26,953 nt of DNA. It comes from a virus. Taxonomy: Duplodnaviria; Caudoviricetes. The translations under genes and the position numbers were made by a program. A model generated the notes under the pieces. It did no database searches. It was not told the DNA's origin and was given only the letters and a program-made list of their open reading frames with translations. Shown here one piece after another: positions 1,305 to 26,004 of the stretch; position 1 is the stretch's first letter, and every line of letters starts with the position of its first letter. The DNA is taken from positions 1 through 26,953 of IMG/VR virus record IMGVR_UViG_3300030376_001735. The stretch is one strand, 5' to 3'.

Positions 1305-4300
1305 TTACTTTCTTTTAATTTTTCTATTTGAATTTCTACTACCTCTTTGTTTGTTCTTTTTTTCAATAGCTTTTAGTTCGTCATACACTAGTTCTATAAA
1401 ATCATTCTCTTCATTTTTAGCATTAACATCCCAAGTTCTCCAACCCAATAATAATGCTATTCTTTGATAAGCACTATTTCTACTATCTAAAGCTTCAGAT
1501 ATAGAATTTAATTCTACAATAACCCTGTCTAAAGGAAGGTTAAATGCAGCAGAAACAAAACTACCTAATATTTCATAGCTTGGTGATATATTTAATCTAC
1601 CATCAGCGATTATATCCATTCCTCTTTCGTTAATAAGCTCTTTATTATATTTTTTAGTTAAATGAGCACCATATAACTTTCTAGCTTTAGAACCAATTGG
1701 TGGAGATATATTAGCTAATTCAATTAACGTTTGAGTGTGATCAGCTCTAAATCCTTTAGCTTCTTCTTTATAGTATTTATTTATTGTATTTTTCAATGTT
1801 GATATGACAGCACCGGTTAAGCCAGATCCTCTTAATATAGTATCAACCATACTATTAACTATTCTTTCTGTTTTAGTGTTAATTATTTTTTGTCTTTTTT
1901 CGTCATCGTCTTCTGGATCGAATTCTGGTAGTAAAGCAAATAAAGCGTTTTGTAACGATGCAAATATTAAGTTTTGTACAAAACCGTAATACATTATTTT
2001 ACTAACGTTTGTTTTCCAATCACCTCTACCGTTAACTAAATCTTGACCAGCTTTTTTCATTAACCTAACATACTGCATTGGAGTGTTTTGGAAAGCTAAT
2101 ATTAATCTACCTAAATGACTTGCTTGTTGAGATGATATTAACATAGGGTCACCAGATTGCTGTGTTTCGTCTGATATTTTAACAAAGTCCTCAAAAGCTT
2201 TTGCGTCAGCATCTTGTTGCGACATACCTTGTTTTAAATATGTTTTAGTTCTATTCATTAAAAACGTAGCACCACCAGTAGCAATAGCCATACTATCTGC
2301 TATTTGTGTAGGTGTAAAACCTATTTTTAATAAATAAGATATAATTGCAGAAGCTTTATCTTTAGAGTTTTTAGCGGCATTAGCAATCTCTTGTTCTTGA
2401 ACATCAGATCTTAAACCACCTCTTCTCTGTTTTAGTTTGTCAGAATTAAATATTCTTACCCACGTCTTCCAGTAGTTTTTCTGATCAGCAAAAGCGGCTG
2501 CTGCTTTTAATGGGTTGTTATCAGACCAGTTAACAAAGTTTGTAAACGAAAGCATTTGTAGCAATGCTGAACGTCTGTTGAAGAACATTATTGTACCGAC
2601 AGAGTTGTTTACCCACTGCATCCATCTTCCTTCTATATCACCCATTTTCCCTGGTCTATTACTACCAGACTTCATTCTACTTATTATATTTTCTAAAGCT
2701 TTTCTATAAGAAGTTCCATATAAAGCCTCTAGTTTATTTAAGTTTTGTTCGCTAAATATCTCATCTACATTTGATATAAACTCAGCTAGATATTCTTTTC
2801 TACTAACCTTTTGATCTAATTCGTTTAAATCTTTTAATATACTACCCACATCCCAATACTCTTCTGGTTCAGCCCATTTTTGTTTTTTAGTTATCACCTG
2901 AAGTGTGTTAGCAAAGTTTTTATAATCTTGATTTTGATTAACAACATTAATTAATGTTTGTTGATCTCGTTTAGATATACCAGGTACTTCAAACCCTGAT
3001 TTGTTATATAAGTATACTCTTATAGCTTGGTCAAGTGTAAAACCTGTGTCTCCTATTTCTTTATCTAAATTCTTTTTTATTTCTGGGTTTGCTTTTAATA
3101 ATGCTCTGTAATCATTTTTCATAGCTTGTCTAGCAGCTTCTATAGCACCAATACCTCTAACATAAGGTGTAACAAGATTATCTTCAAACCATTGTTGATC
3201 TTGATCACCCTGCTTGCCTTTACCAGCTAAAACATATTGAGTTAAACCTCTAAAATCATCAGCACCATGAGCGAAAAATTTAAACTTACCTTTACTAGCA
3301 CCTTTTTTTCTGGCAACAATTTTTGAATAAGTAGTATCAGCTCTAACACCAGTGTTACGCTCTATCATTTCATTTAACTCACGACTAACACTTCTTTTTC
3401 TATCTGATCTAGCTTGTTGAACTTTACCTTTAACATCAAAAACATTTAAAACATTTTGAACAGCTTGAACATTTTTATAAGCATCATCAACGAAATAAAA
3501 ATCATTAAAACCTTGAGCAACTTTATTTATTATCCAAGCGGCTTTAGCAGCAGGTGTACCATTTTCTAAACCAGTTATATTTTCTATAGGTATATCTATA
3601 CCTATACCTTTTAAAAACTCTTGTATTGCTTTAGCTGAAGCTTGAGGTCTAGCTGTTAGCACAAATATATTTTCATTACCAAACTTATCAATAGCTTTTT
3701 TAATTCTAGGAGCTAATGGTCCCGGTCTTCCTTTTACAACTTGATTAAATTCATTAAAATCAAATGTAGCACCTTGCGATTTTAGCTTTTCATCTTGAGC
3801 AGCAAACTGAGCTGGTGTTATTTTTTTAACCTTACCATTAGGCATTGTGACTATTATTTTACTAGCACTAAAAGCAAGCGTATCATCAAAGTCGTAAACG
3901 CTTATACCTTTTGGTTCTACACTCACAGATCTACTTCTTTCTACTAAATTTTGATTAGTTAATACTTGAGCAAATTCTTCTATTTTTATATCAATAGCTC
4001 TTTGAGCTCTACTTAAAGCTTGTGTTTCTCCAGTTACAGCGTAAAAACTTTTTATTTTGTTTTCAGGTATTGCGTAAACTCTTAGATCACCTAACGAACT
4101 TGTTCTACCATGTACGTCATCTTGTATTTGTGATAACACTTCTGTTCCTATTGACTGACTAAAGTCTGAAACTATATTCATTAAATCTTTTTCTGTTGCT
4201 AAACTAATTAAATCGGAACCAGGATATTCAAGCATGGTATTTATAGTACCTAACTGATACACAGCTATTTTACCAAACGTGTTTGAAGATGGATTCTTGT

Positions 4301-7300
4301 GTTCACCTTTAGCTCTTAATCTTTCTCTAAATTTTTGCTCTATAGACTTATCTAATTGTTTTTGTATTTTATCTTTTTTATCTTGAGATAGTTTGGGATT
4401 TTTTAACTCCTGTATTCTGTTAGCGTCTCTCTGATCAATATACGCTTTGGCTTCTTTGTATTCTGGGTGATTAAAGTTTATGTTGATTTCATTATTGTCG
4501 TATCTAGCTCTTTCTTTAGCTGTTATACTATTATAACCTTTACCATCTAAACCTACAAAAGGAGCTTGATTTTCTGCGTATATTTGAACTTCCTCTATCT
4601 TTGTCAAGCCTCTCAATGCTTTACCTATATTACCATTTGCTTGTAACCATGTTAGATAACCTGGTATCAGTTTTGGATTAGCAGCAACAATTGACTGTGC
4701 TTTTTCTAATATATAAACTAACGCTGCTAAGTTATTTGCGTTAATTGTTTTTATATCTTCACCAAAAGCTTCTTCAAAAGCTTTTTCAGCTGCTTTTTTA
4801 CTTTCAAACTTTTGGTTTAATATTTTGTTTTGTATTTTTAAAACAAAACCACTACCAGCTTGTATTATTTTAACACCAGTAAAAGGAACACCACCTTTTT
4901 TAGCTTTACCTATTTTGTTAAATATTCTAAGGCCATCTGGTTGGTTAGGATCTATAACTCTATCATGTATACCTAATAAAGCTCTTTGTTCTGTTTTACC
5001 AAAAGCATTAAAAAACTCACTAGGCAAAATACTTACTAGCTTAGAAGAGAAAGGTACTATTGCTTTTTTCTTTTCGTCAGGGCTCATGTTTAAAAACTTA
5101 TCTAAGTATGGTTTTACTTTAGCACCAGCTTTTGTTTTAGAATATTCTTTCAAGGGGTTTATAAAACCAGTTATAGATTCTGTTTCAAAAGCTTCTTTTA
5201 AATATAGATCTTTTATAAACTCATAACCTTTAGGTAAATTATTAAGATGGTTATCTAGTTCAGTAAAGCTACCTTGCGCACCTAATATTACAGCGGCTTC
5301 ATAGTATTGGATTGCAGCTCCACGAGATATAGATCTTTTAACACCACCTCTTTCAGCTTGCTCCATGAACTGATTAATCTTATCTACAGCGTTAACAACA
5401 CCTTTTGCTAGTTGATTTTTATTAAACTCTTGAGCTAGTGATCCATTAGGATTATTTACTATCTCATCTATCATAAGTTCTAAACCAATTTCTTGAGCCA
5501 TGTGTTTTGCTAATGCTTCTTTTCTTCCTCGTATTAACTTACCCTTAGCATCGTAAAATTGAGATAAATAAACATTGTCATCTAGTTCAATAGCATTATC
5601 AGCTCTAAAAACTAAATCATGCCCAGATGTTCTACCAGCATTATCAGTACCCATTTTTTCTCTAGCTATCTCTTGACCAACCCACTCAGGGTATGGCACT
5701 CTAACTTCATCACCGTTTTCTAGCTTAATTGTTTTTTCAATAACCTGAGGTATACCACCATTAACATCACCATTTTTTTGCGTCTTACCTTGTAGCCATG
5801 TTGTGGTTGAATTAGTTAATACATCTTGTTTTAAGTTAAGTAGGTTTTCTCTTAATTGACCTCTTGTTCCTAAGAAATTAATCATTGCGTCGTAAACCAA
5901 TGATTCACCAAGATTCTTTTTAAGCTCTTTTATTATAGGTGAGTTCTTAGCGTTTATAGATTTTACATTACTCAATGCTGTGTCTAAGTCTCTTATTATA
6001 GGTAGTAATAAAGTTTTAACTTTTTTCTTTTCATCGGCTGTAAGCTTTTGACCCATTTTTATTTTTGATGCTATTTTTGTAGCTGCTTCAGCTTCTTGCT
6101 TGGCTATCATTAATTCTTCTGGGTTTAAAGAAGTATCTTGTATATCTTGAGTTGTTTGAGTACCTTCTCTATCTACATCTATAGACTTTGTTTTAACTTG
6201 TCTTTTTAATCTGTTAGTTACATTACCAGTTTTAAATCCTATATAGGAATTTAAATATCCAAACAAACCTGTACCTATTGTAGGATCATAATTATTTAAA
6301 TGTTTTACTAATTCAAATCTAGCATCTTCAATAACTTGTTGTCTAGACTGACCATATATATTACTACCTTGTTCTAACTTAGCCCCAATCAAACCATCAA
6401 AAGCTCCCGTATCTATCAAAGCTTTAGCTGTCATATGTGCTTTACTACCTATAAATTCTTCTTTAGGATTAACAAGAGCATCTAGTTTTTCTTGATTAAT
6501 TTTCTCATTCATATTTATAGACTTCTTTCTACCTGATTCATCATCTGGTGTAAAGCTGTCTAACATCCTTTGCTCTTGATTACTTAACTTACCTTTTTCT
6601 ATATTCTCTTTATAGTTTAGCATAAAGTCATAAACTTGACGGCCAGTTTCAAACTCATATTTTTTTAAACCAAACTTTTGTTTAACTACATTTATAAGGG
6701 TTCTACCCATTCTTAAGAAACCGTTGTCGCCTAATTCTTGATAAGTAATTTCATTTTTAAATAAAGCATCGGAAAACATAGTTAACCACTCGTCTTGATC
6801 TTTTCCGCCTTCATCTATTTTAGCACCTATTAATCTATATTTTTTAGCTCTTCCTTCTAACTTACTTAAAACACCTTTTTCTTTTAATATGTTTTTAAAC
6901 TCAGTAACAACTTTACCTATATTTGGATTTTTCTTAAATTCAGATTTTATTATTTTATGTAGTAACTCATGACTAGCAACTGATACAGCTTGATTTTCAA
7001 CAGCGGCTTCCATGTTTATATATATTTTACCATCTTGTTCTAACCAACCATCTGTAAACATTTCTTCTGAAAAACCTGCTTTTATTAATTGATCTAAATT
7101 TTTTAATTGTATAGTTTCTACACCAAAAGTGTCTTTAAACATTTTAACGTCACTTTGTATTGCTTGTTCTGCAGCGGACTCAACTAGTTCTTGTAGTTTT
7201 ATTTTTTTAGAATCTATTTGTGCATTTATTCTATCATGATGACTTTCATCGTATTTTTTTAGATCAGCTTCTAACTTTCTAATATCCTGCTGTATTACCG

Positions 7301-9578
7301 CGTGCTCAATTAACTCGTCGGGTGTATTAAACATCCATGCTGGAAAACTACCATCACTTATAGCTTTTATTTGATCAGCTAATTCAGTAGCTTCTTTTTT
7401 TGTTATTTTACCCCTATCAGCAGCCGCATTAAGCTTTTGTCTAGTACCTTTCAAGTCTTTACCTAAAATAACCATGTTTGCTAGTCTAGCTTTTTTACTA
7501 TCAGGTGTAGCAAAGTTTGCGACACTAGTACCACCAACTAATCCACCAGCAGCAAATGATAATATAGATGTTTGAACAAAATCTTTTAAATTATAATCTT
7601 GTTTTAAAAACTCTTGACCAGCTTGCTCGTTTATATTTCTATTGACAATACCAACCTCACCTAATTGCTGTACGTTTTCTTGAGCAAACTCTTTAAAACC
7701 TTCATTAACAAAAGTTCTTAGTGTAGCTCTATCAGGTATTAATCTTGATAGTTGTTGTTTTAATGTATTTTTAGCCGCTTCTTTCCCACCTTGTTTATAA
7801 GCTTTTATAACATCATTTATTCTAACGTTTCCAGCAACCCAATCATCTAGCTTATTTAAACCAGGTAGTCTAGGATTTATAGGACCTGTTACAGCATACA
7901 GTAAAGCCATTTGAGCAGATGCAGAGTTAGCTAATTTCTCAGCTTCATTAAAAGGTATACCAGCGTCTAAAGCTGCTTTTAACACACTTTCATGACCAGT
8001 TGAAGCACCATAAAAAGCTTGGAACATTGTAGCATCAACAATTCTAGGATCAAAAGGCATGTTAACACCAAATGTTTCTTTTGTACTAGAGTATCTACCT
8101 GTTGATACGTTTCTAGCTCTTGTGTTTAAAGGTTTTAAACCTCTTAACTGTCTTACTTTGTTTAAACCTTGTAAGTATTTAAGCGATGCAACTGTTCTTA
8201 AACTTCCAGCGCCTTTAGTTCCAAGTATTTGAAATACTATATTACCTATTGTATGACCCATTATACCAGAAGCACCTCTTAAATTAAAGTCATTATCAAC
8301 AGCCCCTTCTTCTTTTATCTTTTTTATTAATTCTTGTTTTTTCTCTGGATCCATTGTATCACCTACGCTTACACCAACTGTTTGGTTATATAGTTGACCA
8401 TCGTAATCGTCAACAGTATATCTTACTCCATCAATCTCTAAAGTCTTACCTCTAGCTAACATGTATTTCATTTGTTTTGTTGGATCAGCAAGATCTAATT
8501 CTCTCCTCAACATTCTTGCTTCATTAGCATAACCATCAAGCCCAACAAGATCACCTAAAAATATACTTGTATCTTCAAGACCTTCGCCAAGACCTAGGAA
8601 AGCATTACCAATAAATTCACCTAAACCTAAAAAACCGCCTTCTAATTCTGAATCGTCAGCTCTGTTTTTTAAGTACTCGTGTTGTTTTTCTTTATTCTCT
8701 TGATCTCTAAATAATTTATTTTTAAAATGAACAGAATTATAATATCTATAGTTGTCATAATCAAAAACACTATAACCACCTTCATTTTCTTTTTGCCAAA
8801 AAGCAAACGCATCATCTATGTTTTTAAACTCAGAATATTTATTAGTATCAGCGTTATAATCTTCTAAAAATATTTTTTCATTAGCTCTAACGTTAACATC
8901 AGCTATATAACCGTCTAAATACATAGATAACTGTCTCTCGTAAGCAACTCGTAAATCTTCAGTTTGATCACCAAACGCACCCCAAAAACCATCTTCAAAA
9001 GCACCTTCTTCATATAATTCTTTAAAGTCTTCAGAGTGTCCACTTCTATTTAACCAACCTTGAAAATCTTTTATATTAATTCCTAGGTTTTCTAAATCGC
9101 TAGCTTTGTAAAACTTATTTACAAAACTGTTATCATTTTCTTGATTGTAAAATAGATGCGAAGAATCCGCGTCTACGTCTAGATCGTTTTGTCTAACTCT
9201 TTTTTGTATTTGTTCGTCTAATGATACTTCTTCTTTTATATCACCATTCCATACTTGATATTCATACCACTCTTGATCAGTGTCAAAATTATCTCTTGAA
9301 ACTTCATCACCTAAACCCCCAGATCTATAACCTTGTCTTTGATTCATGTAACCAAACTTAAGGTCCATGAATTTCATATTTCTTTCCTTTATAAGTATTT
9401 CATTTACCTCTTCTTGCTCTTGTTCTATCTCAGAGTTAGGTCTTTCGTAACCTCTAATTCTTAAGTCCTCAGGAGTAGCCTCAACAGCATCTGGGTTTTG
9501 AACTAAGAACATTACTTGTTGATCTTCGTCTAACCCGCTAATATCTTGTACACCGTTTTGTGTTAAGTATTTAGACAT
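1305..9578 (-). CDS. Giant multidomain internal virion/ejection ('polyvalent') protein, 2757 aa, with zincin metallopeptidase, sigma-like and HAD domains
   Basis: Uninterrupted 8.3-kb ORF downstream of the tail genes. Gly/Ala-rich hydrophobic segments in the N-terminal third, HELLH at aa 870-874, a sigma-region-2-like segment at aa ~1050-1190, HAD motifs I-IV at aa ~1890-2050 and a helical C-terminal region. Confidence 0.8.
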   Translation of the reverse strand: MSKYLTQNGVQDISGLDEDQQVMFLVQNPDAVEATPEDLRIRGYERPNSEIEQEQEEVNEILIKERNMKFMDLKFGYMNQRQGYRSGGLGDEVSRDNFDTDQEWYEYQVWNGDIKEEVSLDEQIQKRVRQNDLDVDADSSHLFYNQENDNSFVNKFYKASDLENLGINIKDFQGWLNRSGHSEDFKELYEEGAFEDGFWGAFGDQTEDLRVAYERQLSMYLDGYIADVNVRANEKIFLEDYNADTNKYSEFKNIDDAFAFWQKENEGGYSVFDYDNYRYYNSVHFKNKLFRDQENKEKQHEYLKNRADDSELEGGFLGLGEFIGNAFLGLGEGLEDTSIFLGDLVGLDGYANEARMLRRELDLADPTKQMKYMLARGKTLEIDGVRYTVDDYDGQLYNQTVGVSVGDTMDPEKKQELIKKIKEEGAVDNDFNLRGASGIMGHTIGNIVFQILGTKGAGSLRTVASLKYLQGLNKVRQLRGLKPLNTRARNVSTGRYSSTKETFGVNMPFDPRIVDATMFQAFYGASTGHESVLKAALDAGIPFNEAEKLANSASAQMALLYAVTGPINPRLPGLNKLDDWVAGNVRINDVIKAYKQGGKEAAKNTLKQQLSRLIPDRATLRTFVNEGFKEFAQENVQQLGEVGIVNRNINEQAGQEFLKQDYNLKDFVQTSILSFAAGGLVGGTSVANFATPDSKKARLANMVILGKDLKGTRQKLNAAADRGKITKKEATELADQIKAISDGSFPAWMFNTPDELIEHAVIQQDIRKLEADLKKYDESHHDRINAQIDSKKIKLQELVESAAEQAIQSDVKMFKDTFGVETIQLKNLDQLIKAGFSEEMFTDGWLEQDGKIYINMEAAVENQAVSVASHELLHKIIKSEFKKNPNIGKVVTEFKNILKEKGVLSKLEGRAKKYRLIGAKIDEGGKDQDEWLTMFSDALFKNEITYQELGDNGFLRMGRTLINVVKQKFGLKKYEFETGRQVYDFMLNYKENIEKGKLSNQEQRMLDSFTPDDESGRKKSINMNEKINQEKLDALVNPKEEFIGSKAHMTAKALIDTGAFDGLIGAKLEQGSNIYGQSRQQVIEDARFELVKHLNNYDPTIGTGLFGYLNSYIGFKTGNVTNRLKRQVKTKSIDVDREGTQTTQDIQDTSLNPEELMIAKQEAEAATKIASKIKMGQKLTADEKKKVKTLLLPIIRDLDTALSNVKSINAKNSPIIKELKKNLGESLVYDAMINFLGTRGQLRENLLNLKQDVLTNSTTTWLQGKTQKNGDVNGGIPQVIEKTIKLENGDEVRVPYPEWVGQEIAREKMGTDNAGRTSGHDLVFRADNAIELDDNVYLSQFYDAKGKLIRGRKEALAKHMAQEIGLELMIDEIVNNPNGSLAQEFNKNQLAKGVVNAVDKINQFMEQAERGGVKRSISRGAAIQYYEAAVILGAQGSFTELDNHLNNLPKGYEFIKDLYLKEAFETESITGFINPLKEYSKTKAGAKVKPYLDKFLNMSPDEKKKAIVPFSSKLVSILPSEFFNAFGKTEQRALLGIHDRVIDPNQPDGLRIFNKIGKAKKGGVPFTGVKIIQAGSGFVLKIQNKILNQKFESKKAAEKAFEEAFGEDIKTINANNLAALVYILEKAQSIVAANPKLIPGYLTWLQANGNIGKALRGLTKIEEVQIYAENQAPFVGLDGKGYNSITAKERARYDNNEININFNHPEYKEAKAYIDQRDANRIQELKNPKLSQDKKDKIQKQLDKSIEQKFRERLRAKGEHKNPSSNTFGKIAVYQLGTINTMLEYPGSDLISLATEKDLMNIVSDFSQSIGTEVLSQIQDDVHGRTSSLGDLRVYAIPENKIKSFYAVTGETQALSRAQRAIDIKIEEFAQVLTNQNLVERSRSVSVEPKGISVYDFDDTLAFSASKIIVTMPNGKVKKITPAQFAAQDEKLKSQGATFDFNEFNQVVKGRPGPLAPRIKKAIDKFGNENIFVLTARPQASAKAIQEFLKGIGIDIPIENITGLENGTPAAKAAWIINKVAQGFNDFYFVDDAYKNVQAVQNVLNVFDVKGKVQQARSDRKRSVSRELNEMIERNTGVRADTTYSKIVARKKGASKGKFKFFAHGADDFRGLTQYVLAGKGKQGDQDQQWFEDNLVTPYVRGIGAIEAARQAMKNDYRALLKANPEIKKNLDKEIGDTGFTLDQAIRVYLYNKSGFEVPGISKRDQQTLINVVNQNQDYKNFANTLQVITKKQKWAEPEEYWDVGSILKDLNELDQKVSRKEYLAEFISNVDEIFSEQNLNKLEALYGTSYRKALENIISRMKSGSNRPGKMGDIEGRWMQWVNNSVGTIMFFNRRSALLQMLSFTNFVNWSDNNPLKAAAAFADQKNYWKTWVRIFNSDKLKQRRGGLRSDVQEQEIANAAKNSKDKASAIISYLLKIGFTPTQIADSMAIATGGATFLMNRTKTYLKQGMSQQDADAKAFEDFVKISDETQQSGDPMLISSQQASHLGRLILAFQNTPMQYVRLMKKAGQDLVNGRGDWKTNVSKIMYYGFVQNLIFASLQNALFALLPEFDPEDDDEKRQKIINTKTERIVNSMVDTILRGSGLTGAVISTLKNTINKYYKEEAKGFRADHTQTLIELANISPPIGSKARKLYGAHLTKKYNKELINERGMDIIADGRLNISPSYEILGSFVSAAFNLPLDRVIVELNSISEALDSRNSAYQRIALLLGWRTWDVNAKNEENDFIELVYDELKAIEKKNKQRGSRNSNRKIKRK
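3420..3915 (-). other. HAD-superfamily phosphatase domain within the giant protein
   Basis: Motif I ISVYDFDDTL (DFDDT at 3879..3893), motif II IFVLTAR, motif III Lys in PAAKAAWI and motif IV FYFVDDAYKN, in the canonical order. Confidence 0.85.
6000..6440 (-). other. Sigma70-family (region 2 plus linker)-like segment within the giant protein
   Basis: SRQQVIEDARFELVKHLNNYDPTIGTGLFGYLNSYIGFKTGNVTNRLKR...KSIDVD...DTSLNPEELMIAKQE...KLTADEKKKV follows the sigma pattern (helix-[FY]DP..G..F..Y....I ... SLD ... PEE ... L+..E+.+). Confidence 0.55.
6770..7050 (-). other. Zincin-like metallopeptidase domain within the giant protein
   Basis: GKIYINMEAA...VASHELLHKII (HExxH at 6957..6971), followed ~55 aa later by DQDEWLTMFSD, which could supply a third Glu ligand. 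Confidence 0.75.
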
Positions 9579-9588
9579 GTGTTAAATT

Positions 9589-10848: not shown

Positions 10849-10854
10849 AATATT

Positions 10855-11502: not shown

Positions 11503-11517
11503 CTTAATTTATTTATA

Positions 11518-11527
11518 TTATTATTAC
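11518..11527 (-). promoter_or_regulatory. Candidate phage promoter motif GTAATAATAA upstream of the ejection-gene block
   Basis: Identical 10-mer also lies in the intergenic gap at 1289..1298, in the same orientation. Confidence 0.35.
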
Positions 11528-11530
11528 ACA

Positions 11531-11899: not shown

Positions 11900-11910
11900 A
11901 TCTATTTATT

Positions 11911-13800
11911 TTATGGGTTAGCTCCGTCATTAGCAAAAGCAAACATTACTTTTAAGTTATGTACATCATTAGTAGCTACGCTTGGACTAAAGTTAGTTAT
12001 TGTAACTGTTATATCCATATATAACTGCCTACTACTTGTACCTTGATTTGTAACTGAAAAACTACTTAAACTAGTGCTGTATGTAGCACTGTTAAATTTT
12101 GTTGTGGTAGCACCATAGTTACCAGCTGTAATAGTAATATCACCAGTAGTGTCTACATATGATGGAAAATCATTACTAGATAAATTAACACCAGCAAAAG
12201 TATATGTTATTGTTGATGAACCTGATGTTCTACCTGTAACCTGCTGTATATAGCCACTAGGATATAGTATCGCACTATTACCACCTGTTACATCTTGAAA
12301 CTGTGTAGTTCCTATGCTAAGAACATTAGTTGTTCCACCACCACCTCCAGATACACTATTACAAAACTCATCTATATTAAAGTTTATAACAGTGTTGTTT
12401 ACACCATGCTGCCAGTTATACCAGTCTGATCCAGTTATAGTTAATTTTTTATTAGCGTTTCCACTATTGTCAGCAGATCTTGCCGCTGTGATTGTTCCAG
12501 CTACTATGTTAGCATCACCAGTTACACCGTAATGACTTGATGTTAATGTTATACTACTTGAAAGACCATTAGCACCGCTAAAAGTAAAAGCGTCATTATC
12601 TTGTATAACGGTAACAAAATTAAACTCAGCGTTATTATTACTTTCAATTTCAGTACCACTTTGTCCATTTATTGCATTAGCTCCAGCGCTATGATTTATA
12701 GCTGTTCCAGCGTAATTAGTGTACGTAGAAACAACAGAAGTTAATGTTCCTCTACTTGTTGATGAAGCATTAACTGTTACGGTTTTAAAACCTCTTCTAT
12801 TTATAGTAAAAGGATTTGTTTGTGATATATTATCTGTTGTTGCTGGTTCCTTGTCATCAGCAGTTATAGTTACTGTATAAGTTACATCAGCTAAAACTAA
12901 AGGTAAAGTAATTAATTGAGCGTGTTGTCCGTTGCTACCTATTGTTAAACTACCAGAATTAGTGCTAGAACTAGTAAAATTACCTGCTGAAAAATCATAA
13001 GTATGACTATCACCTGTTCTAGTTATGTTAACAGTAAATTTAGCACCTACATCACCATATACAGTTAAACCTCTTTTAGTTAAAACATACGGAGCATCTG
13101 AAGTGTCCATGCTGTAACTATTAATTCTATTTAAAGCAACTGGTATATCTTCAGCGTTAGCTGTTATATTTATAACATCAGCAGTATCTGTTATCAAAGG
13201 TATTATACCATCAACATTAAAAGTTGTAGCAGTATGACTAGTGCCAGTACCATTTGGTGTACCTACTATAACATAGTTATCAACATTTCCTGTTGCTACA
13301 ACACAAGTTGGAGGTATTTTAAAATAATGCCCACTAGTAGCAGTTACAGTTCTAGTAAATAAATCTACTGTAGTGCCGCTTGTAGCTGTAGCTGTATAAG
13401 CTTGATTTGTAGCAGCTGTTGTAGCATCTGTTACTGATACATTAAAAACACCTGATAAAGTTTTAGGTATATTTTTTTCTAATACAGCAGCGCCATCAAT
13501 ATCTATAGTAAAAGTATGATTGTTAGTTCCTGGATTAAATGTATCTTTAAGATCTACTGTTACAATTACTTTATTGGCTTCAGCGTAAGCCACGCTACTG
13601 TCTGCTAATGTTATATTGTTAATTTGATTAACAAAAGGAGCAGCTGCTAAATCTGTATTTTGAGCAAAATCAGCGGCAGCAACTCTAAAACCAGTGTTAG
13701 CTGTTATAGTTAACACTTGGTTAGCAACGCCAGATCCTAAAGCTTGTGATGGTGTAACCTCAACAGATGTGGAATTTATTGTACAGTTAATTAGTGCCAT
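11911..13800 (-). CDS. Tail fibre/spike-like protein with tandem beta-sandwich modules (629 aa)
   Basis: Extremely Thr/Ser/Asn/Gly-rich and charge-poor. Recurrent T.TA..G..F-type motifs and a GGGGG linker before the last ~135 aa. ATG overlaps the upstream stop (TAATG at 13800). Confidence 0.6.
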   Translation of the reverse strand: MALINCTINSTSVEVTPSQALGSGVANQVLTITANTGFRVAAADFAQNTDLAAAPFVNQINNITLADSSVAYAEANKVIVTVDLKDTFNPGTNNHTFTIDIDGAAVLEKNIPKTLSGVFNVSVTDATTAATNQAYTATATSGTTVDLFTRTVTATSGHYFKIPPTCVVATGNVDNYVIVGTPNGTGTSHTATTFNVDGIIPLITDTADVINITANAEDIPVALNRINSYSMDTSDAPYVLTKRGLTVYGDVGAKFTVNITRTGDSHTYDFSAGNFTSSSTNSGSLTIGSNGQHAQLITLPLVLADVTYTVTITADDKEPATTDNISQTNPFTINRRGFKTVTVNASSTSRGTLTSVVSTYTNYAGTAINHSAGANAINGQSGTEIESNNNAEFNFVTVIQDNDAFTFSGANGLSSSITLTSSHYGVTGDANIVAGTITAARSADNSGNANKKLTITGSDWYNWQHGVNNTVINFNIDEFCNSVSGGGGGTTNVLSIGTTQFQDVTGGNSAILYPSGYIQQVTGRTSGSSTITYTFAGVNLSSNDFPSYVDTTGDITITAGNYGATTTKFNSATYSTSLSSFSVTNQGTSSRQLYMDITVTITNFSPSVATNDVHNLKVMFAFANDGANP

Positions 13801-16800
13801 TAGTCGTTGTTTTCGTTTACTGTTATTGTTACTTTGTATGAGTAGTCATTGCTTGCAGATACAGATCCACTACCTAAACCTTGAACGCTAAATTCACTTG
13901 TATCTAAATTAGACAACGTTGTTTGTGTGCCTTGTATATAATTAAACCATTTACCTTCTTTTTCTACAAACTTTAATACATTACCACTTTGTTTGTCAGA
14001 CTCTATAGAATTACTCCACCAACCAGCAACGCTGTTTTTGTTAAAGAAATCATTATCTGTATCAGAGTTACCACTATTATCTTGGAATATTCTAGCTTGA
14101 GTTCCTTCGTAGTTTAATGTCTTATGCTGCTTAATAGAACCAGGAGCATCGTTAAATATAAATTTAATACTTGAATTATATGGATCTCCATAAAAATTAT
14201 TTCTAGTTTCATTATCATGAACCCAAAGATCACCGTGTTTAAATGTATAATATTTATTGTTTAAACTAACACCATCTTCTTGTAAAAAACTTTTTCTACT
14301 AGTCCAACCATTAGTATCTTCTTTAAAAGATATTGTATCATGGTTTAATGTTATATTGTATTCTTTTTTATTAGTATCATAGCTACCTATAACAGTAGTA
14401 GATAATGCTAAGTTTTCTTTAAAGTAATCTTCCATACCATAACGTGATATAGGTTCAAGACCATCAGCAGATAATCTTAAAACTACTCCTCTAGCTTTAT
14501 CTGAAAAATAAGCCCTATAACCATATGTTGTATAAGATTCAGGGTTTTTACTTATACCAAATTCACCAGTGTAAGGATTTGGTGTACCTAATACATTTGA
14601 TGATACTGTAACTTGTTTACTACCATCAGCTGTAAATAATATATCTTTATTGGTAGGTATTTTAAAACATTTGTCTTCACATAAAACATCTAAACCACCG
14701 TGTCTATGTCTCATTAATTGTATTGAACCATAAACAGGGTTTATTTGTTTTGTTATTTTATCCGCTTGTATAAACTGATTAGTGTTGTTAGTTCCACTTA
14801 TAGAATTATAAAGACCAGAGAATATAACGAAATTTGATTTTCTTTCTTCAGCATAAGGTGTTTCTAACACTGTACTAGCTTTTACACCTTTACTTAGTTT
14901 AGCGGCATTAAAGTCATCTCTAACTCTATCAGACTCTACACCATTGGCGAAACTCCAGCAGTTAGAGTAATCTAAAGTTTGTTCGTCACCATGTACTGAT
15001 TTGTTATAAGCTTGATCTGCTTCGTAATATAGATTTAAATCTGTTATATCTTTTGGTTCTGTTTCAAATATAGCTGGATTATCACTTGTGAAACCTTTTT
15101 CGTCACCACCAGCGTATATATCTAAAAACTCTATTTGAGTAGCCGATGCTTTTGATGTATGTCCATTATCTTCTGGTGCCCATTGTATTTGCTTATCTAG
15201 TTTTAAAGTCCATTTAATAATTCTCATACTACCCCATCTACCTATAGCACCATCTTTAAAAGCACCTATATTACTTCTCCTGTATGCTTTTATTTGATAA
15301 ACAGTTTGATCAGGGTCATCAGTAAACCTAAACTTCATATTTGTTGTTTGCATTGAAGTTACTAGGTTTTTATAAGCAGGTCTATGTTGATACTCAAAAT
15401 TATTCCAAGCACCTTGCCAAGCGTCTCTATCTTGATCGTACCACCAGTGGTAAGCTATTTCAATAAAATCATTACCAGATTGAGCTCCAAAACCTCTAAC
15501 ATCATGAGCGTTACTGTGACTTGTAACACCACCTAAACCACCTCTGTATTTATTACCGTTAGTAACTAAAGTACCACCAGCATCTTTATAATGTCTGTAT
15601 ATATTTCTACATAAAAACCACTCTCCGTGATACGTGTCATTTCTTCCTGCTCCACCTGGATAAACACCTTTTTGAGCATTTCTCCAATAATCCTGTGATT
15701 TATCAGGTGCAAAATTATTAGCATATATATGTGTGTTAGCTATAACACTGTAGTCGTCAGAATTTTCATTATTTAAAATAGCTGATTCTAATATACCATC
15801 TCTTTCTATTTTAGCAAAAAATCTACCACCAAATTCAGGTTCTGTTTTAATATTTTTTTGAGCAATCTCTAAAGATAAACTATTATCACTTTGACTATAA
15901 CTACCTATAAAAGAAACATCATCTTCAGCTAATTTATCTTCTAGTTCGATCTCGTAGTAATCATTACTACCAGCTTCAACAAGTTTTAAATTTGCAATAT
16001 CATACCACTTTGTTTTGTTACCCGCTGATAATACTCTAACTAACAAATCAGATTTGTGATGCACGGGTGGTGTATTTTCATTGAAATCATTTTCACCACC
16101 TCCAAAAACTTTTTTCCATTTACTTTTTAATATGTGCATATAAGTTCTATCTGGTTCAGGAAAACCAGTAGATACGAATATATTTTCATTTTGTTCTCCA
16201 GAGTTAGTAGAATTTAAAACACCCTGTGTGACTCTTTCTATCTTTAAAAAATCTGGAGCTTCGTTTTCAATAGCTATTATTTTATATCTAGCTTCATCTT
16301 CAACAAAAGTATCATCGTTGTGTTTCTTCTTTAAAATTAAAAATGTTTCTTCTGATACCTTGTTTCTTTCTGACGAAGGAAAAGCTATCCAGACATTGCC
16401 ATCTTCAGCTGGATAATGTCTATCCATAGCTAAGTTATAATATTCGTCTGAGGATTCTTTTATAAAATATTTATAAGACTCTGCCCAGTATGGTATTGGG
16501 CTAGTTATTTTTACTTTTAAAATATTGTAATTTATAGCAGATAATTTATCTAGTGTAAAAGATCCAGATGTATCTGTAAACACAGGTGTCTCTCTACCGT
16601 ATTTATCTCTATATACAACACCAACTTGATAAGTTCTAAGCGATTTGATAGATGGATATGGTTCTTTTTCTAAAGTTGATACTGAGGGATTTTGAACTAT
16701 AGATACGTCAAACCTAACGCTTATATCATCACCACTAGAATCTTTCATGTCAAAGTTTTCTATATAGTTACCATACATTATTCTATTAGCAGATAATGCT

Positions 16801-18086
16801 TGCGCTTTAGCTTTTCTAGGAACATTATCCCAAGGTCTTAATGCTTGTATTGATGGTAAAACTTTATATATAACATCTGATGTTATTTCTATCTCACCAT
16901 TAGTACCAGCCGTATATTCTTCATCTGTTGATTTTACACTTTGTACTGTATATATGTTATTACTAGCAGTATCTTTATATAGTATATCTATCTCCTTAAC
17001 ACCATGAGGTGCTCCTTCTGTGAAACCACCTATTTTTAAAGATCTAACATTGTTAACCATACCCTTATTATAACCTTTTTTAGGAGCGTAATCAAAGTCA
17101 GACGGTAAAAAAGCTACCTTACTATAAGGTCCTATAGCTGAATACTCATTGTCGTCAAATTTATATCTATATGAAAACCTAGGAAACTTAAATTCAAACA
17201 TAGGTTTTTCTTCTATTAACTCAACTTTCCAATCTTGTAAACCTTCTTCGATGTTTTCTGAAATAACATCAACATTTATTCTAAACGTAGCTGAGTTGCT
17301 ACTAAAAAATTCTTGAGTTATACTAGCTATAATCTCAGCATCATCACTACCACTTAATAGAGTTAAACGTAACTTATCACCAACTTCAAAATTTGGTGTA
17401 GTTGAAAACGTAACAGTACCATAATCACCAGTGCTTATAGCATCGAAAGGATCTGTTGTCTCTGTAAATCTTTTTTGCAATAATGTAGTTTCAACAATAC
17501 CAGTTCTTTTAGATGCTGACATTGCTATGCTTGGCGGTTTTATTGGAGCTTTCTTTATAACCGTTATTTGATCTTCTGTGAAGTTAGCGCCACTTATTTG
17601 AGTGTGTGTATAATTACTATTAGAGCTATTATAAGCTTTCCAAGTTTTTATATTTATTTTCTTTGGCTCTGTTTGATCGTCTGTCCAGAATAATAAATCA
17701 TCTATTATGTTTATACCAGTTATCAAAAACGTTGCGTTAAAACCTAAAACACCTGTAGTGTCTACTAATATAGGTGAAACAACGTTTAATGTTTGATCAT
17801 ATTCTAGTATTAAAGACTTAGTGTCACTAGCAACAAACCAGTATATCATCTCTGTTTTAGTGTTTGAATAAACACCGATACAAGTAGGGTTAGTACCTAG
17901 ATTAGACAAAGCGTTACCATATGGTCTTCTATTACCTAATATATTTTGCACAGCACCAACGTCACTAGCTTCAGAACTAGACACTTGTATGTTTAATGCA
18001 TCTCTATATTTACCATTAGGAACTATTCTTTCGTCGAGGTCCTTGTTCATAGCACCTCCACCAAATTGTCTCTTTATTTCTGGCAT
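13800..18086 (-). CDS. Tail nozzle/muzzle (stabilisation protein, P22 gp10/crAss-like), 1428 aa
   Basis: N-terminal FGGGAMNKDLDER..P.G.YRDALN, beta-propeller-like segments (GINIIDDLLFWTD, YFSDKARGVVLRLS.DGL..IS), the YQVGVVYRDKYGRETPV motif and C-terminal EKEGKWF, recalled from crAss-like tail stabilisation proteins. Position after the ring genes fits. Confidence 0.75.
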   Translation of the reverse strand: MPEIKRQFGGGAMNKDLDERIVPNGKYRDALNIQVSSSEASDVGAVQNILGNRRPYGNALSNLGTNPTCIGVYSNTKTEMIYWFVASDTKSLILEYDQTLNVVSPILVDTTGVLGFNATFLITGINIIDDLLFWTDDQTEPKKINIKTWKAYNSSNSNYTHTQISGANFTEDQITVIKKAPIKPPSIAMSASKRTGIVETTLLQKRFTETTDPFDAISTGDYGTVTFSTTPNFEVGDKLRLTLLSGSDDAEIIASITQEFFSSNSATFRINVDVISENIEEGLQDWKVELIEEKPMFEFKFPRFSYRYKFDDNEYSAIGPYSKVAFLPSDFDYAPKKGYNKGMVNNVRSLKIGGFTEGAPHGVKEIDILYKDTASNNIYTVQSVKSTDEEYTAGTNGEIEITSDVIYKVLPSIQALRPWDNVPRKAKAQALSANRIMYGNYIENFDMKDSSGDDISVRFDVSIVQNPSVSTLEKEPYPSIKSLRTYQVGVVYRDKYGRETPVFTDTSGSFTLDKLSAINYNILKVKITSPIPYWAESYKYFIKESSDEYYNLAMDRHYPAEDGNVWIAFPSSERNKVSEETFLILKKKHNDDTFVEDEARYKIIAIENEAPDFLKIERVTQGVLNSTNSGEQNENIFVSTGFPEPDRTYMHILKSKWKKVFGGGENDFNENTPPVHHKSDLLVRVLSAGNKTKWYDIANLKLVEAGSNDYYEIELEDKLAEDDVSFIGSYSQSDNSLSLEIAQKNIKTEPEFGGRFFAKIERDGILESAILNNENSDDYSVIANTHIYANNFAPDKSQDYWRNAQKGVYPGGAGRNDTYHGEWFLCRNIYRHYKDAGGTLVTNGNKYRGGLGGVTSHSNAHDVRGFGAQSGNDFIEIAYHWWYDQDRDAWQGAWNNFEYQHRPAYKNLVTSMQTTNMKFRFTDDPDQTVYQIKAYRRSNIGAFKDGAIGRWGSMRIIKWTLKLDKQIQWAPEDNGHTSKASATQIEFLDIYAGGDEKGFTSDNPAIFETEPKDITDLNLYYEADQAYNKSVHGDEQTLDYSNCWSFANGVESDRVRDDFNAAKLSKGVKASTVLETPYAEERKSNFVIFSGLYNSISGTNNTNQFIQADKITKQINPVYGSIQLMRHRHGGLDVLCEDKCFKIPTNKDILFTADGSKQVTVSSNVLGTPNPYTGEFGISKNPESYTTYGYRAYFSDKARGVVLRLSADGLEPISRYGMEDYFKENLALSTTVIGSYDTNKKEYNITLNHDTISFKEDTNGWTSRKSFLQEDGVSLNNKYYTFKHGDLWVHDNETRNNFYGDPYNSSIKFIFNDAPGSIKQHKTLNYEGTQARIFQDNSGNSDTDNDFFNKNSVAGWWSNSIESDKQSGNVLKFVEKEGKWFNYIQGTQTTLSNLDTSEFSVQGLGSGSVSASNDYSYKVTITVNENND

Positions 18087-20802: not shown

Positions 20803-22305
20803 TTAGCTCTTAAATAATACGAAGTTGTTTGCTGCTTGAACGCATAAACATCTTTCAGATAAGAAGTTAACTACCATCTCATCAGCGTCAGAAGTATAGT
20901 TTCCACCAACAGATCCAGTGATCCATGATTTCATTTTTCTATCATCAGCTTCAGAAGATCTATATCTAACATGTAAGAATGGTCTAGAGATATTTTTACC
21001 CATAGATTGGTCATACACAGTAGATGTACCAGCTGGTACTAAAAGACCTTGAATATCAGTCAAGTTTCCTCTAGTAGTTGAATCATTTAAGTATTTCCAG
21101 TCAGATTTGTAGAAGTCATAAGAACCTCTTCTGAAACCAGAGAAACCTAAATTTAACGCCATATCTTCTGCGTTGTTGAATACTCCATAAGAAGCACCAC
21201 CAGCAACGTGTGAATTTACAGACGCTAACATGTTATCAATTTCTAAAGAAGTGTTTCTATCTAAGAACATCATGTTCTCTTCAATAGCACCTTGCTTGTC
21301 TAATTCATTAAGAATAGTATCGAACTCACTTAAACCAGCATTTGCAATGTACGTACCACCTGAAACACCAGCGGCGCTATAGTTAGTTTGTACGTCAAAA
21401 TCAGTTCCAGTAAATACTAAACCTCTTGATTCAACAGCCGCAAAAAGACCTTCAGAACCTTGAACCCCAGCAATAGTAGATGTAGAAGCTACTTGTTCAG
21501 CTTCTAACATAGACATTTCTAGGTAGTCTTCAAATCTTAATCTAGCTTCGTGTTCGGATTTCATGTACCATAAGTAACCAGAAGCTCCGTTTTCAGTTGT
21601 AACTTCAACCCAACCGATCTGTGCAGTGTCAGAACCATTAACTTGGTATCTGTCTCTTAAGATGATTGGTCTATTGCTAAACTGAGTAAACCCAGCGTCT
21701 ATACTACCAACGATTCCTGAAGAACCTTTTGGATATTCATTACCATATACAAATACTTTAATATCATCACCATCTTGGAAAAGAGTGTCTCCGATATTAG
21801 CTTGAGTATAAGGTAAAGCAACTAAACCACTAGCAGGAGCAGCTTGACCACCAACAGAAGCTCCGTTGATAGCACCAACTCTACACTTTAAAGTGTTTCC
21901 TAATCTAGCAGATTCGTTGTTTACAATGATAATTGTATCGAATGCTTGTACTAAGTGACCAGCAGGTAACGTAATTGTGTTAACTCCAGCGTCAGCTATT
22001 TGTACAGTGTTAGCTCCAGATTCTAATGAATCATAAGCGATGTGTAATCTTCCTTGTTCAGACCAAATAACTTGATCAGAAGCAAGAGGCATTTCAGCTC
22101 CTACCATTTTAAGGAAACCAGATACAGTTCTTTTTCCGTATCTTTCTACTTCCTTTTCATAAATTTCTGGTAAAAATTGTTGTGCGAATGTTCCACCGCC
22201 AGATGCAGAATCGAAGCTCAAATAATTGTCTCCCCACAACGTTTGAGTTGGGCGAGGTGTCAAGTGCTGTAATTCAGCACCTTGAGCGGGATTAATAAAA
22301 GGCAT
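20803..22305 (-). CDS. Major capsid protein (HK97 fold, crAss-related type), 500 aa
   Basis: Follows portal and scaffold and precedes a strong terminator. Size fits, as do recalled motifs (WSEQGRLH, N...I.RD.Y.V.GSD, G.EGLF..V.SRG, C-terminal FLSERCLCVQAANNF). Confidence 0.85.
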   Translation of the reverse strand: MPFINPAQGAELQHLTPRPTQTLWGDNYLSFDSASGGGTFAQQFLPEIYEKEVERYGKRTVSGFLKMVGAEMPLASDQVIWSEQGRLHIAYDSLESGANTVQIADAGVNTITLPAGHLVQAFDTIIIVNNESARLGNTLKCRVGAINGASVGGQAAPASGLVALPYTQANIGDTLFQDGDDIKVFVYGNEYPKGSSGIVGSIDAGFTQFSNRPIILRDRYQVNGSDTAQIGWVEVTTENGASGYLWYMKSEHEARLRFEDYLEMSMLEAEQVASTSTIAGVQGSEGLFAAVESRGLVFTGTDFDVQTNYSAAGVSGGTYIANAGLSEFDTILNELDKQGAIEENMMFLDRNTSLEIDNMLASVNSHVAGGASYGVFNNAEDMALNLGFSGFRRGSYDFYKSDWKYLNDSTTRGNLTDIQGLLVPAGTSTVYDQSMGKNISRPFLHVRYRSSEADDRKMKSWITGSVGGNYTSDADEMVVNFLSERCLCVQAANNFVLFKS

Positions 22306-23577: not shown

Positions 23578-26004
23578 TTATCTCGGTTCAAAGGCATTCA
23601 TGCCAAAACCGCCACCCATTATATCATTACCTGAAGATTCAAAGTTTTTAGGTGGTTTTTTATTATTTCTTTGATCTATTAATTCAGATTGTTGTGACGC
23701 TTGGATTTTTGTTCTTTCGTCCTTGCGATCTTCTTTTACTTTTTCTCTAGTTTTAAGTATTTCAGTCTCCATTTGCTTTAACTTTAAGTTTAATTCAAAC
23801 TCAAAATTCATAAGCTCTTTCTTAAGCATAGCCTCTTGTTGCATTTTCTGTATCTCTAATTGGCTCTTACCTTGTTCTAATTGCATCTGGCTTTGAGTTA
23901 AAGCTTGATTTTTTTGAACTTCAGCTTGAGCAGCAACTTGTTGAGCTTGAGCGTTTGCTTGTGCTTGTGCTTGTATGTTTTGCTGTTGGATCATTTGATC
24001 TTCTTCAGCTTTTTGTTTACGTTTTAGTTTTAATAACTGATTAGCAAGCTTTATATTTTTAATCTCTCTAATATCTATAGCATCTTCAAGATTTATACCT
24101 TGTTGCTGTAACGCTTGCTGTATGTTATTTTCTAACATAGCTTTTTCTTCTTCATCAGGTGTTAATTCAATAAATATACCAAAATCATATAAATGTAAGT
24201 TAGACATTTCAGTTAACGTAGCAACATTATGTCTACCTAATTTTTGAATAAAAGCTTCTTTAGTTGGTGAATATTCTATTATATCAGATATTCTAAGTGA
24301 TAAACACTCCGCTAATTCTGTTGTTAAGAATAAACCGGCTTGTAATATATGTCTTGTAGCTGTATTACTATTAGCAGCTGCTAATTTTTGAACACCCACT
24401 AATGTCTTAGCATCTGGCATACTACCATCACGCGCCTCGTTTAATCCCGTGACATCTCTGATCATTTGTAGGTAGTAGTTATATGTTTGTATTAAAGACT
24501 GTAATTTAGCGCCTCCATTACCGCTTTGTATTTCTTGTATTGGAACTTTACCTGGGTTCATATCACCATCAGATGTAAATGATCTACCAATTATACTACC
24601 AGTCTGGAAAAACATGTTTAATGCTTCTTGTGGATTATAGTTTGTACCATTACCTAAATCTATTTCAGCTAAACCATCAGCATCTAAATATATACCGTCT
24701 GGAACCATTCTAGACATCACCTGTTGAATTTTAAGGTGTGTTATTTGAATCATATCAGCAAAAGTAGTAATTCTACTAACTAATGACTCTATTTTACCCT
24801 TATACATTCTAGGTGCAACTATATTATAGTTCATTTTAACCTTAGTGTAATCACTCTTAGGTCTCATCATGTTGGATGCTAGTTTCCACTTTAACATTTT
24901 TTTAGATCCTAAAACCATAGCTCCTTCAAATAAAACCTCAATTTGTTTAGATAATTTACCAAAATTAGCTTCCAACAACTCTGTAGGAGGATTAAATTGA
25001 TCATCTTTAACTATAACTTTACTAGCACCTGTTGATGTTGTTTTTGTTTTATAAACTTGAGTCATGTATGTCTTATAATTAAAATATAAGATTTGAACTT
25101 GATTTTTATCTAAATTTGTTGATTCAGATAAAGATCTATTATAAAAACCAGTAGTTTGATGACTTTGATTACTTAACTCTTTCAAGTCAGCTTCGGTTAA
25201 TTCTGGAAACTCTTTTACTATTTCATTTATAGGTAAGGTTTTTATTTCACCAAAATAATATATATCTTCGAAATATGGATCTTCAGTATATGAATAAACT
25301 ATATTAGCTGGATCAACATACTCTACTTTTACTCCTTGAGATTTATTAAAGCTATTTTTAACACAAGCTATACCTAAAACAGTCAAGTCGTAATTTAATT
25401 TTTTACGAGTTAACTCATATCTATTACCATCTAATAAAACATTTATAGCTTGTTCTTCAGCTATTTCTACAGCTTGCTTATAATTTAATTGCATGTGTAG
25501 TTGTAATTCGTCTTGGTTTTGAGGTAACACATCTAGTTGACTAGACATTAGGTTTACTCCAAAAGCCTCAGCTGCGTACTCAGTAAGTTCTTGAGACTTC
25601 ATGTCAGACAATATGTTTTCCATATACTTAGTTCTCTTGTCTACACCAAAAGGATCTTGAGTATATGCTTTTATATCAAATGATCTTTCTGATATACCAT
25701 TAACTACTATGTCCACAAACTTGGGTATAATAGGTACTGGTTTCCAGTCTAAGTTTAAGTAAGACAAATCACCATTTATAGATAACTCATCTTTATATTT
25801 TTGAATAGCTTGTTCTCCTCTCGCGTATAATCTAAGCTTGTGGAAGTTATTTTGGTTACTTGCAAACCTATTAGTGCCAGAGTCTCTTTTAAACCACTCG
25901 CTCTCTATAGCTTTACCTATTTTTAAACCGTAATCTAAAGATAACTTCTCTTTGTCAGGTACTACTTGACTAGGAAAATAATTGCTCATGTAAGACTCAG
26001 CCAT
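23578..26004 (-). CDS. Portal protein (808 aa)
   Basis: Directly after the terminase. PIIPKFVDIVV and IRDVTGLNEARDG motifs and a long Gln/Ala-rich C-terminal coiled coil, as in P22/crAss-type portals. Confidence 0.85.
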   Translation of the reverse strand: MAESYMSNYFPSQVVPDKEKLSLDYGLKIGKAIESEWFKRDSGTNRFASNQNNFHKLRLYARGEQAIQKYKDELSINGDLSYLNLDWKPVPIIPKFVDIVVNGISERSFDIKAYTQDPFGVDKRTKYMENILSDMKSQELTEYAAEAFGVNLMSSQLDVLPQNQDELQLHMQLNYKQAVEIAEEQAINVLLDGNRYELTRKKLNYDLTVLGIACVKNSFNKSQGVKVEYVDPANIVYSYTEDPYFEDIYYFGEIKTLPINEIVKEFPELTEADLKELSNQSHQTTGFYNRSLSESTNLDKNQVQILYFNYKTYMTQVYKTKTTSTGASKVIVKDDQFNPPTELLEANFGKLSKQIEVLFEGAMVLGSKKMLKWKLASNMMRPKSDYTKVKMNYNIVAPRMYKGKIESLVSRITTFADMIQITHLKIQQVMSRMVPDGIYLDADGLAEIDLGNGTNYNPQEALNMFFQTGSIIGRSFTSDGDMNPGKVPIQEIQSGNGGAKLQSLIQTYNYYLQMIRDVTGLNEARDGSMPDAKTLVGVQKLAAANSNTATRHILQAGLFLTTELAECLSLRISDIIEYSPTKEAFIQKLGRHNVATLTEMSNLHLYDFGIFIELTPDEEEKAMLENNIQQALQQQGINLEDAIDIREIKNIKLANQLLKLKRKQKAEEDQMIQQQNIQAQAQANAQAQQVAAQAEVQKNQALTQSQMQLEQGKSQLEIQKMQQEAMLKKELMNFEFELNLKLKQMETEILKTREKVKEDRKDERTKIQASQQSELIDQRNNKKPPKNFESSGNDIMGGGFGMNAFEPR

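Follow-up and report, generated by a model that had tools for sequence, protein, structure and literature searches.

Candidate autoprocessing signals at the domain joints of a giant, probably virion-packed phage protein

A giant protein of an uncultured marine tailed phage carries a short recurring signal at four of its domain joints, all of them downstream of a zincin-like metallopeptidase domain within the same chain, and homologues that naturally lack this domain nearly always lack the signal as well. The protein of 2,757 amino acids (aa) is encoded by an open reading frame (ORF) at positions 1305..9578 on the minus strand of IMG/VR virus record IMGVR_UViG_3300030376_001735; the window analysed is the entire record of 26,953 bases, which is about 48% complete. 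Synteny with gp18 of Elemovirus marks it as a probable virion cargo (ejection) protein of the polyvalent type. From comparison of sequences, we consider it likely that the four joints are autoprocessing sites for the giant protein's own peptidase. This is the simplest reading because the signal depends on the domain, is found only downstream of it, has a footprint of the size expected of a protease site, and accompanies an intact active site.

The junction signal and the peptidase domain

The initial annotation of the window had described a recurring basic-S-[IV]-[SN] motif at the domain boundaries of the giant protein. All four hexapeptides are found where it placed them, on the minus strand: RKKSIN (site 1, aa 1017, 6513..6530), directly after the peptidase and before a sigma-like domain that begins at aa ~1023; VKRSIS (site 2, aa 1413, 5325..5342), right behind which homology to most relatives stops; RSRSVS (site 3, aa 1881, 3921..3938), before the HAD domain and the least conserved of the four; and RKRSVS (site 4, aa 2060, 3384..3401), before the C-terminal domain. 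Sites 3 and 4 do bracket the HAD domain (aa 1889-2052), and the predicted piece lengths of 396, 468 and 179 aa are correct provided that the cuts share one offset within each motif. A weaker copy put forward as a possible fifth site, NVKSIN (aa 1204, 5952..5969, minus strand), is instead a chance match: it lies in a loop inside a folded domain with a predicted local distance difference test (pLDDT) score of ~80, and only 5 of 61 aligned homologues retain the Lys. At site 2, the K is kept in 56 and the S in 47 of the 61. KTKSID was rejected as a further site as it is not conserved. The pattern [RK]S[IV][SN] occurs five times in the protein against a mean of 0.31 in shuffled sequence, a count reached by none of 20,000 shuffles, although this result alone overstates the significance, the pattern having been picked after sight of the protein. 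It has no occurrence in the 12 other ORFs of the window that were scanned.

The annotation had named low-confidence linkers as a check, and AlphaFold models, which were built for aa 798-1428 and for aa 1855-2495 from alignments of 62 rows, place the sites in such stretches. Site 1 lies within a coil of pLDDT below 50 (model residues 217-224), and site 2 within a stretch that is also below 50, though close to where the folded construct ends. Site 3 is at the end of a helix that runs into pLDDT below 50, and site 4 at a joint below 50 that enters the first helix of the C-terminal domain.

Homologues were collected in six scans (best 80 at most per scan), giving ~410 loci, all selected via the C-terminal domain, out of a total that the scans put at roughly 700-1,300 viral and 3,500 metagenome stretches. 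A giant ORF was retained if it extended for 1,250 residues or more upstream of that domain, and discarded if it was open at a contig end and had no peptidase match; rows more than 93% identical were merged when they agreed in peptidase state. In this way 196 rows were reduced to 143, to which 139 later rows added 67, for a total of 210. One locus (L032), in which the giant gene is split into two overlapping ORFs (4150-9579 and 9527-12175) by a frameshift or an assembly error, is excluded from the counts.

The motif is conserved among the homologues, but in another form than that first described: the family signal is [VI]-K-x-S-x, where x can be F, R, Y, N, K and others, and basic-S-[IV]-[SN] is the variant of the window's own lineage. 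The middle and following residues are lineage-specific, and some lineages have Q or A in place of K, or N in place of S. A free motif search by expectation maximization drifted onto the last HAD strand and was discarded; we used instead a score matrix trained on site 2 alone (59 of 64 proteins). The matrix peaks at 0-40 residues after the peptidase, 0-40 before the HAD domain and 0-20 before the C-terminal domain, with no peak just upstream of the peptidase; an additional peak ~320 residues into the C-terminal domain is taken for a conserved chance match. Matches occur at 4.3 per 1,000 aa between the peptidase and the C-terminal domain, compared with 1.5-1.8 outside this span and 1.5 within the same span of peptidase-less proteins. 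The window's sites score 14.2 (site 2), 5.8 (site 4), 3.4 (site 1) and, in a shifted register, 4.2 (site 3), so that the window variant is partly off the family matrix. In the test that the annotation had named, the signal persists when the cargo is exchanged. The seven closest relatives found by the peptidase region all keep the four sites, and they include proteins with cargo at 37-52% identity and one with cargo that does not align. The signal also stays before the C-terminal domain with or without a preceding HAD domain.

The zincin-like domain (aa ~820-1000, 6579..7121, minus strand) has the active-site motif H870-E871-x-x-H874 and E930 as third ligand. It is missing from 15 of the 210 homologues, absence being defined as no match to a 164-sequence profile with filters off. 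In the first set no bearer scores below 39 bits against this profile, and in the second none below 31. Each peptidase-less protein that was inspected has a full ORF with a start codon, and several show homology to bearers that ends before the domain and picks up again after it. At site 4, the matrix threshold is passed by 95 of 132 proteins with the peptidase and none of 11 without it, although some of these proteins had contributed their site 2 to the training of the matrix; in a held-out set the counts are 33/63 and 0/4, and by the pattern [KR]x[SN] they are 139/195 and 1/15. Profiles built without the motif were used to locate site 2; where they succeeded, the signal is present in 90 of 109 bearers and 1 of 13 peptidase-less proteins (chance, 12-19%). 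Site 3 is found in 59 of 124 proteins that carry both the HAD domain and the peptidase, as opposed to none of eight that lack the peptidase (chance, 5.5%). Peptidase-less proteins retain the sequence of the flanking domain as far as the motif, and at two or three different joints it is just the motif that has been replaced. This joint loss of signal and domain supports the earlier proposal that the motif is a recognition site for the upstream metallopeptidase, and it is from this that we infer recognition by the domain. Cleavage is suggested by the general-base Glu, E871, which like H874 and E930 is invariant in all 132 peptidase-bearing homologues (H870 is kept in 129 of the 132). Recognition is thus better supported than the cut itself.

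The peptidase-less proteins do not form a single clade, this arrangement being rejected on a 31-row tree by the approximately unbiased test (p-AU 2e-38). The peptidase state changes six to eight times on C-terminal trees, 11 times on the tree of the region before the peptidase, and four times among the 27 rows of the middle-domain tree, in which the peptidase-less protein L192 is nested among bearers. On the pre-peptidase tree, which was the last tree tried, 10 independent pairs give an average of 7.1 with the association versus 0.2 against it (median p 0.016). Tests on the C-terminal tree are not significant (four pairs, median p 0.25-1; six pairs, median p 0.125-1). Across all these tests almost no pair runs in the opposite direction. 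Since modules recombine, there may in truth have been closer to four losses than 11. The trees bear on the proposal that the motif is no more than a structural habit of linkers or a helix cap, missing from peptidase-less proteins through shared ancestry. The non-significant pairs on the C-terminal tree would fit this, recombination may have spread peptidase-less back halves from few events, and the Ser of site 4 stands at a helix start in the model. However, it is hard to see why domains would then be kept up to the motif and the motif dropped at two or three separate joints, the nested position of L192 argues against shared ancestry, and a helix cap leaves unexplained why the same variant appears at unrelated joints of one protein. 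We regard this explanation as very improbable.

Variation of the signal within and between proteins

The annotation had noted that codons differ among the copies, so that the repeat is one of protein rather than DNA, and this holds across the family. When sites of one protein are compared in pairs, 338 of 628 matching residues have the same codon, where codon usage predicts 326, and in 103 of 194 pairs the two Ser codons come from different codon boxes. In the window protein the Ser is encoded by TCT at aa 1020, 1207, 1416 and 1884 and by AGT at 2063. Codon identity near expectation points to selection on the peptide. It also largely refutes the notion that the repeats are DNA-level recombination tags for the swapping of modules, which has in its favour that homology breaks coincide with the motifs and that the modules are mosaic, and to which we give next to no credence.

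Sites within one protein resemble each other more than they resemble those of other proteins only at positions -3 to +2, with a likeness of the middle residue of 0.46 within the own protein and 0.18 to others. Concerted change is seen in disjoint pairs of nearest relatives, where own-protein likeness exceeds cross-protein likeness in 22 pairs and falls below it in four (39 pairs, 13 ties), and in another set, in 26 and four (41 pairs, 11 ties). The flank controls, four per set, are all null, and an earlier window-based test on 54 rows goes in the same direction. L041, for example, has K-E-S-K-G at three joints, L220 likewise has F-S-E-T at three, and the 4,044-aa protein L233 shows F-S-K or F-S-R seven times.

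The variant does not clearly follow the peptidase tree. With hand-coded variant classes, the changes at site 2/site 4 number 15/13 on the peptidase tree, 12/13 on the middle-domain tree and 13/12 on the C-terminal tree; the site-4 middle residue is the same in 5 of 16 pairs with close peptidases and distant C-terminal domains, for a background rate of 0.32; and partial correlations of the variant with peptidase identity are small (0.10-0.23). For this reason, and because proteins with mixed variants exist (L011, L050), the reader of the signal appears to be tolerant. The same lack of tracking could be taken to mean that the motif is cut by a different protease, from the host or from elsewhere in the phage genome, such as a head-maturation protease, whose gene could be out of view in a record that is only about 48% complete. 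Such sites should not vanish upon loss of the built-in domain, however, and the 12 other window proteins show no protease family in Pfam or PHROG and match the site-2 matrix at background level (eight matches in 5,781 aa). A separate protease therefore seems a poor prospect.

Besides the C-terminal tree tests, the late choice of the pre-peptidase tree, the possibly few losses and the weak tie between variant and peptidase, a number of exceptions weigh against autoprocessing. The strict pattern is absent from site 4 in 56 of 195 peptidase-bearing proteins, L189 being one bearer with no signal there, and three of 132 bearers (L195, L238 and L244) have no match at all between the peptidase and the C-terminal domain. 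Conversely, the peptidase-less L363 keeps K-A-N-K at site 4, and L394, also peptidase-less, has a match near site 2. The junction motif is retained in L187, L190 and L201 despite replacement of the first His of the active site by Glu. Lastly, although the virion RNA polymerase of coliphage N4 includes an HExxH domain, it is reported to stay linked after ejection (PMC13434306, PMC5512222).

That N4 domain stays uncut, and according to the same two accounts its region is needed for encapsidation, which lends some weight to the idea of a peptidase domain that binds but does not cut the motif, for docking, threading or self-inhibition during packaging or ejection, with the active site directed at the cell wall or at host proteins. 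Co-loss indicates dependence and not cutting, and peptidoglycan digestion is suggested for such domains in the available text of the phi14:2 (10.1101/2020.03.07.982082) and phi24B preprints. On the other hand, the motif matches a protease subsite footprint in size (-3 to +2), recurs at every downstream joint, reaches up to seven copies in the 4,044-aa homologue, and goes with an invariant catalytic Glu. Binding alone is thus in our judgement unlikely.

If autoprocessing is correct, the built-in HExxH peptidase would recognise [VI]-K-x-S-x at the four downstream joints and likely cut there, releasing the sigma-like module together with the middle domain (sites 1 and 2), the variable cargo, the HAD phosphatase-like module and the C-terminal domain. 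The products would be the N-terminal 1,019 aa, which include the peptidase, followed by pieces of 396, 468, 179 and 695 aa. With no signal upstream of the peptidase, this domain is expected to stay attached to the N-terminal region. The giant protein would be packed in the virion and then injected. Timing is the least certain part: we favour cutting after entry into the host on the model of N4 gp50, whose N-terminus is anchored in the membrane, although this step is weak, and cutting inside the head is the alternative. In a wider picture towards which we lean, a widespread marine phage family delivers its early weapons as a self-cleaving polyprotein with a lineage-specific code at every downstream joint; new modules flanked by the code would be freed as enzymes inside the host, and loss of the protease would erase the code and leave one tethered chain. 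If this is true, the code would predict module borders and cut sites from sequence alone.

Modules of the giant protein and the virion gene block

Pfam and PHROG searches assign the 2,757-aa protein to no family, PDB sequence-profile searches gave nothing useful, and tblastn against cultured phages found a single weak match to the HAD domain and nothing else. The N-terminal region (aa 1-800, 7179..9578, minus strand) is acidic, has one glycine-rich hydrophobic stretch and background motif density, and would stay attached to the peptidase. In the model, the peptidase consists of a helix, three strands, the HExxH helix (model residues 70-84) and a later helix with the Glu (131-143). This secondary structure agrees with the description of the polyvalent-protein metallopeptidase (MPTase) in section 8 of PMC5512222, with an N-terminal helix, a three-stranded sheet and two C-terminal helices. 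The HExxH helix with its general-base Glu and the third zinc ligand, E930, on a later helix are likewise shared with the zincin-like MPTase of polyvalent proteins. Matches to Pfam zincins are weak, limited to single members and below cut-off (M13, E 4e-4; M91, E 5e-4). Foldseek against PDB and BFVD returned nothing at E of 0.001 or below for either AlphaFold model; the VIA search lists no zincin, the peptidase query in both searches being a 631-residue multidomain model of which the sigma-like part filled the list; and peptidase matches in the ESM Atlas are unnamed clusters, of which that at rank 7 has LPD23 on 18% of its members. Variant active sites occur in otherwise normal peptidase domains, reading E-E-x-x-H in L187, L190 and L201 and H-E-x-x-x-H in L248. 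L072 and L079 have nearly identical middle and C-terminal domains and motifs and very different peptidase domains, indicating that the peptidase module has itself been swapped.

The domain at aa ~1023-1131 (6186..6512, minus strand) resembles sigma factor region 2. In VIA-align searches with the model, the top 10 rows are sigma factors or transcription complexes with Z of 7.5-8.1, modest because the fold is helical, the best root mean square deviation being 2.7 over 81 aligned residues. The model thus supports the helical region-2 fold of sigma-70 domain 2. The conserved middle domain (aa ~1180-1408, 5355..6041, minus strand), delimited by alignment and model, has no assigned function. It is followed by the variable cargo module (aa ~1419-1880, 3939..5324, minus strand), which falls into 10 groups among 64 proteins by blastp and has no named match in the ESM Atlas. 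An E-H-x-x-P motif, which also occurs in His-Me finger nucleases, is present in the window's cargo and in many of its counterparts; the cargo may be nuclease-like.

The HAD-family phosphatase-like module (aa 1889-2052, 3423..3914, minus strand) is missing in many homologues. It has a DFDDT motif I, the D1896 and D1898 of which are found in 39 of 39 rows with residues there, a motif IV DD (D2031-D2032) and a Rossmann-like core, as in HAD phosphatases. HAD structures take ranks 2-6 in Foldseek with probabilities of 0.97-0.99, but with E values of only 0.04-0.1. In two homologues a P-loop kinase (Pfam AAA_33) is inserted in the HAD domain: L014 (aa 2032-2179, E 1e-14, ORF 2885-12217, plus strand) and L233 (aa 2476-2608, E 2e-11, ORF from 140, plus strand). 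The combination resembles the polynucleotide kinase/phosphatase pair of RNA-repair enzymes. There is no strong motif match on the flanks of the L233 insert, in line with motifs marking only the joints between released pieces. The conserved C-terminal domain (aa 2066-2757, 1305..3383, minus strand), helical in the model, is 51-72% identical in the first 80 loci and has no assigned function. The optional HAD domain, the 10 cargo groups, the kinase inserts and the incongruent module trees together show that one polypeptide holds swappable unrelated domains, as polyvalent proteins do.

All long ORFs of the window lie on the minus strand and together form a virion gene block, which contains genes for the portal, a probable capsid protein, a muzzle protein of the crassvirus type and other structural proteins, and which the giant gene closes as its last large gene. 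The portal protein is encoded at 23578..26004 (phrog_6547, E 1e-159), a virion structural protein that by position is probably the major capsid protein at 20803..22305 (phrog_13704), and the tail muzzle-like protein at 13800..18086 (Pfam crAss_MUZ_C, E 5e-8; phrog_14478), all on the minus strand. The probable capsid protein is matched by 85 phage records, 68 from Flavobacterium and 15 from Cellulophaga phages. By these sequence matches the phage is a relative of flavobacterial podophages, and since they are mostly to phages of those two genera, the host is probably a marine flavobacterium. After the giant gene, a 392-aa ORF at 90-1268 on the minus strand has a signal-peptide-like start, an aromatic-rich C-terminus and no Pfam or PHROG family match; its product is possibly an outer-membrane barrel.

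Comparison with known systems

In viral polyproteins cut by their own protease, and with the head-maturation proteases of tailed phages, a short site is repeated at domain borders and the protease is encoded by the virus. The window protein differs in that its protease is an optional metallopeptidase module within the cargo protein of a DNA phage.

The closest parallel is with the polyvalent proteins, whose domains were proposed in 2017 to be freed by autoproteolysis, either within the head or once injected (Iyer et al., PMC5512222). Those with a zincin-like MPTase are also giant and multidomain, with HExxH, a downstream Glu and swappable enzyme-like modules; N4 virion RNA polymerase, ArdC and TraC1 are delivered whole according to that paper. 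The window protein matches no LPD or MPTase Pfam family. The available text of PMC5512222 names no cleavage motif and has no occurrence of the word 'linker', whereas candidate sites are here tied to the domain by natural losses.

The crassvirus cargo proteins gp65-gp66-gp67 of phi14:2 similarly belong to a Bacteroidota podophage and are large, virion-packed proteins with a zincin-like domain, suggested in the bioRxiv preprint (10.1101/2020.03.07.982082) to process a fused polyprotein. For similar domains, the phi14:2 and phi24B preprints suggest either processing or cell-wall digestion. The window protein matches no RNA polymerase family, its cargo being the sigma-2-like domain, the variable module and the HAD domain, and the phi14:2 preprint, in its available text, names no cleavage sites. 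N4 gp50 (PMC13434306) is a giant ejected protein with an N-terminal membrane part, globular domains on linkers and an HExxH motif, but its HExxH domain is described downstream of the cargo, whereas that of the window protein is upstream.

Gp18 of Elemovirus (Flavobacterium phage elemoE 6-9C, 3,694 aa; L254:30679-41326) has the same gene position, is annotated as a structural protein and carries a homologous peptidase (hidden Markov model score 39.6 bits, E 1e-13), but has other cargo and no match to the C-terminal domain profile. Its position and label, by analogy, are what suggest that the giant protein is packed in the virion. It has R-x-Q-[KA] at aa 1683, 2079 and 2302, the first directly after the peptidase (post hoc, P 0.044), which might be its own junction variant, in a phage that is in culture, though the support is weak. 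Maribacter phage Panino CDS0069 (L253:31744-37233), a syntenic protein of 1,829 aa, is a candidate counterpart by position only, with no HExxH and no matrix match of at least 6 bits.

A literature search, mostly of open-access papers, found none that describes such a junction motif, though the supplements of PMC5512222 could hold linker alignments. What is new in the sequences compared here is the co-loss of the junction signal with the peptidase domain. In marine phages the motif also marks the borders of modules across hundreds of proteins that lack annotation, which makes it easier to study their cargo (sigma-like, HAD, kinase and nuclease-like) module by module. In the sources cited, self-processing of giant phage cargo proteins by zincins is proposed without sites or substrates, and the best-studied case, N4, is uncut; the present comparison names four candidate sites together with the catalytic residues and a series of natural knock-outs.

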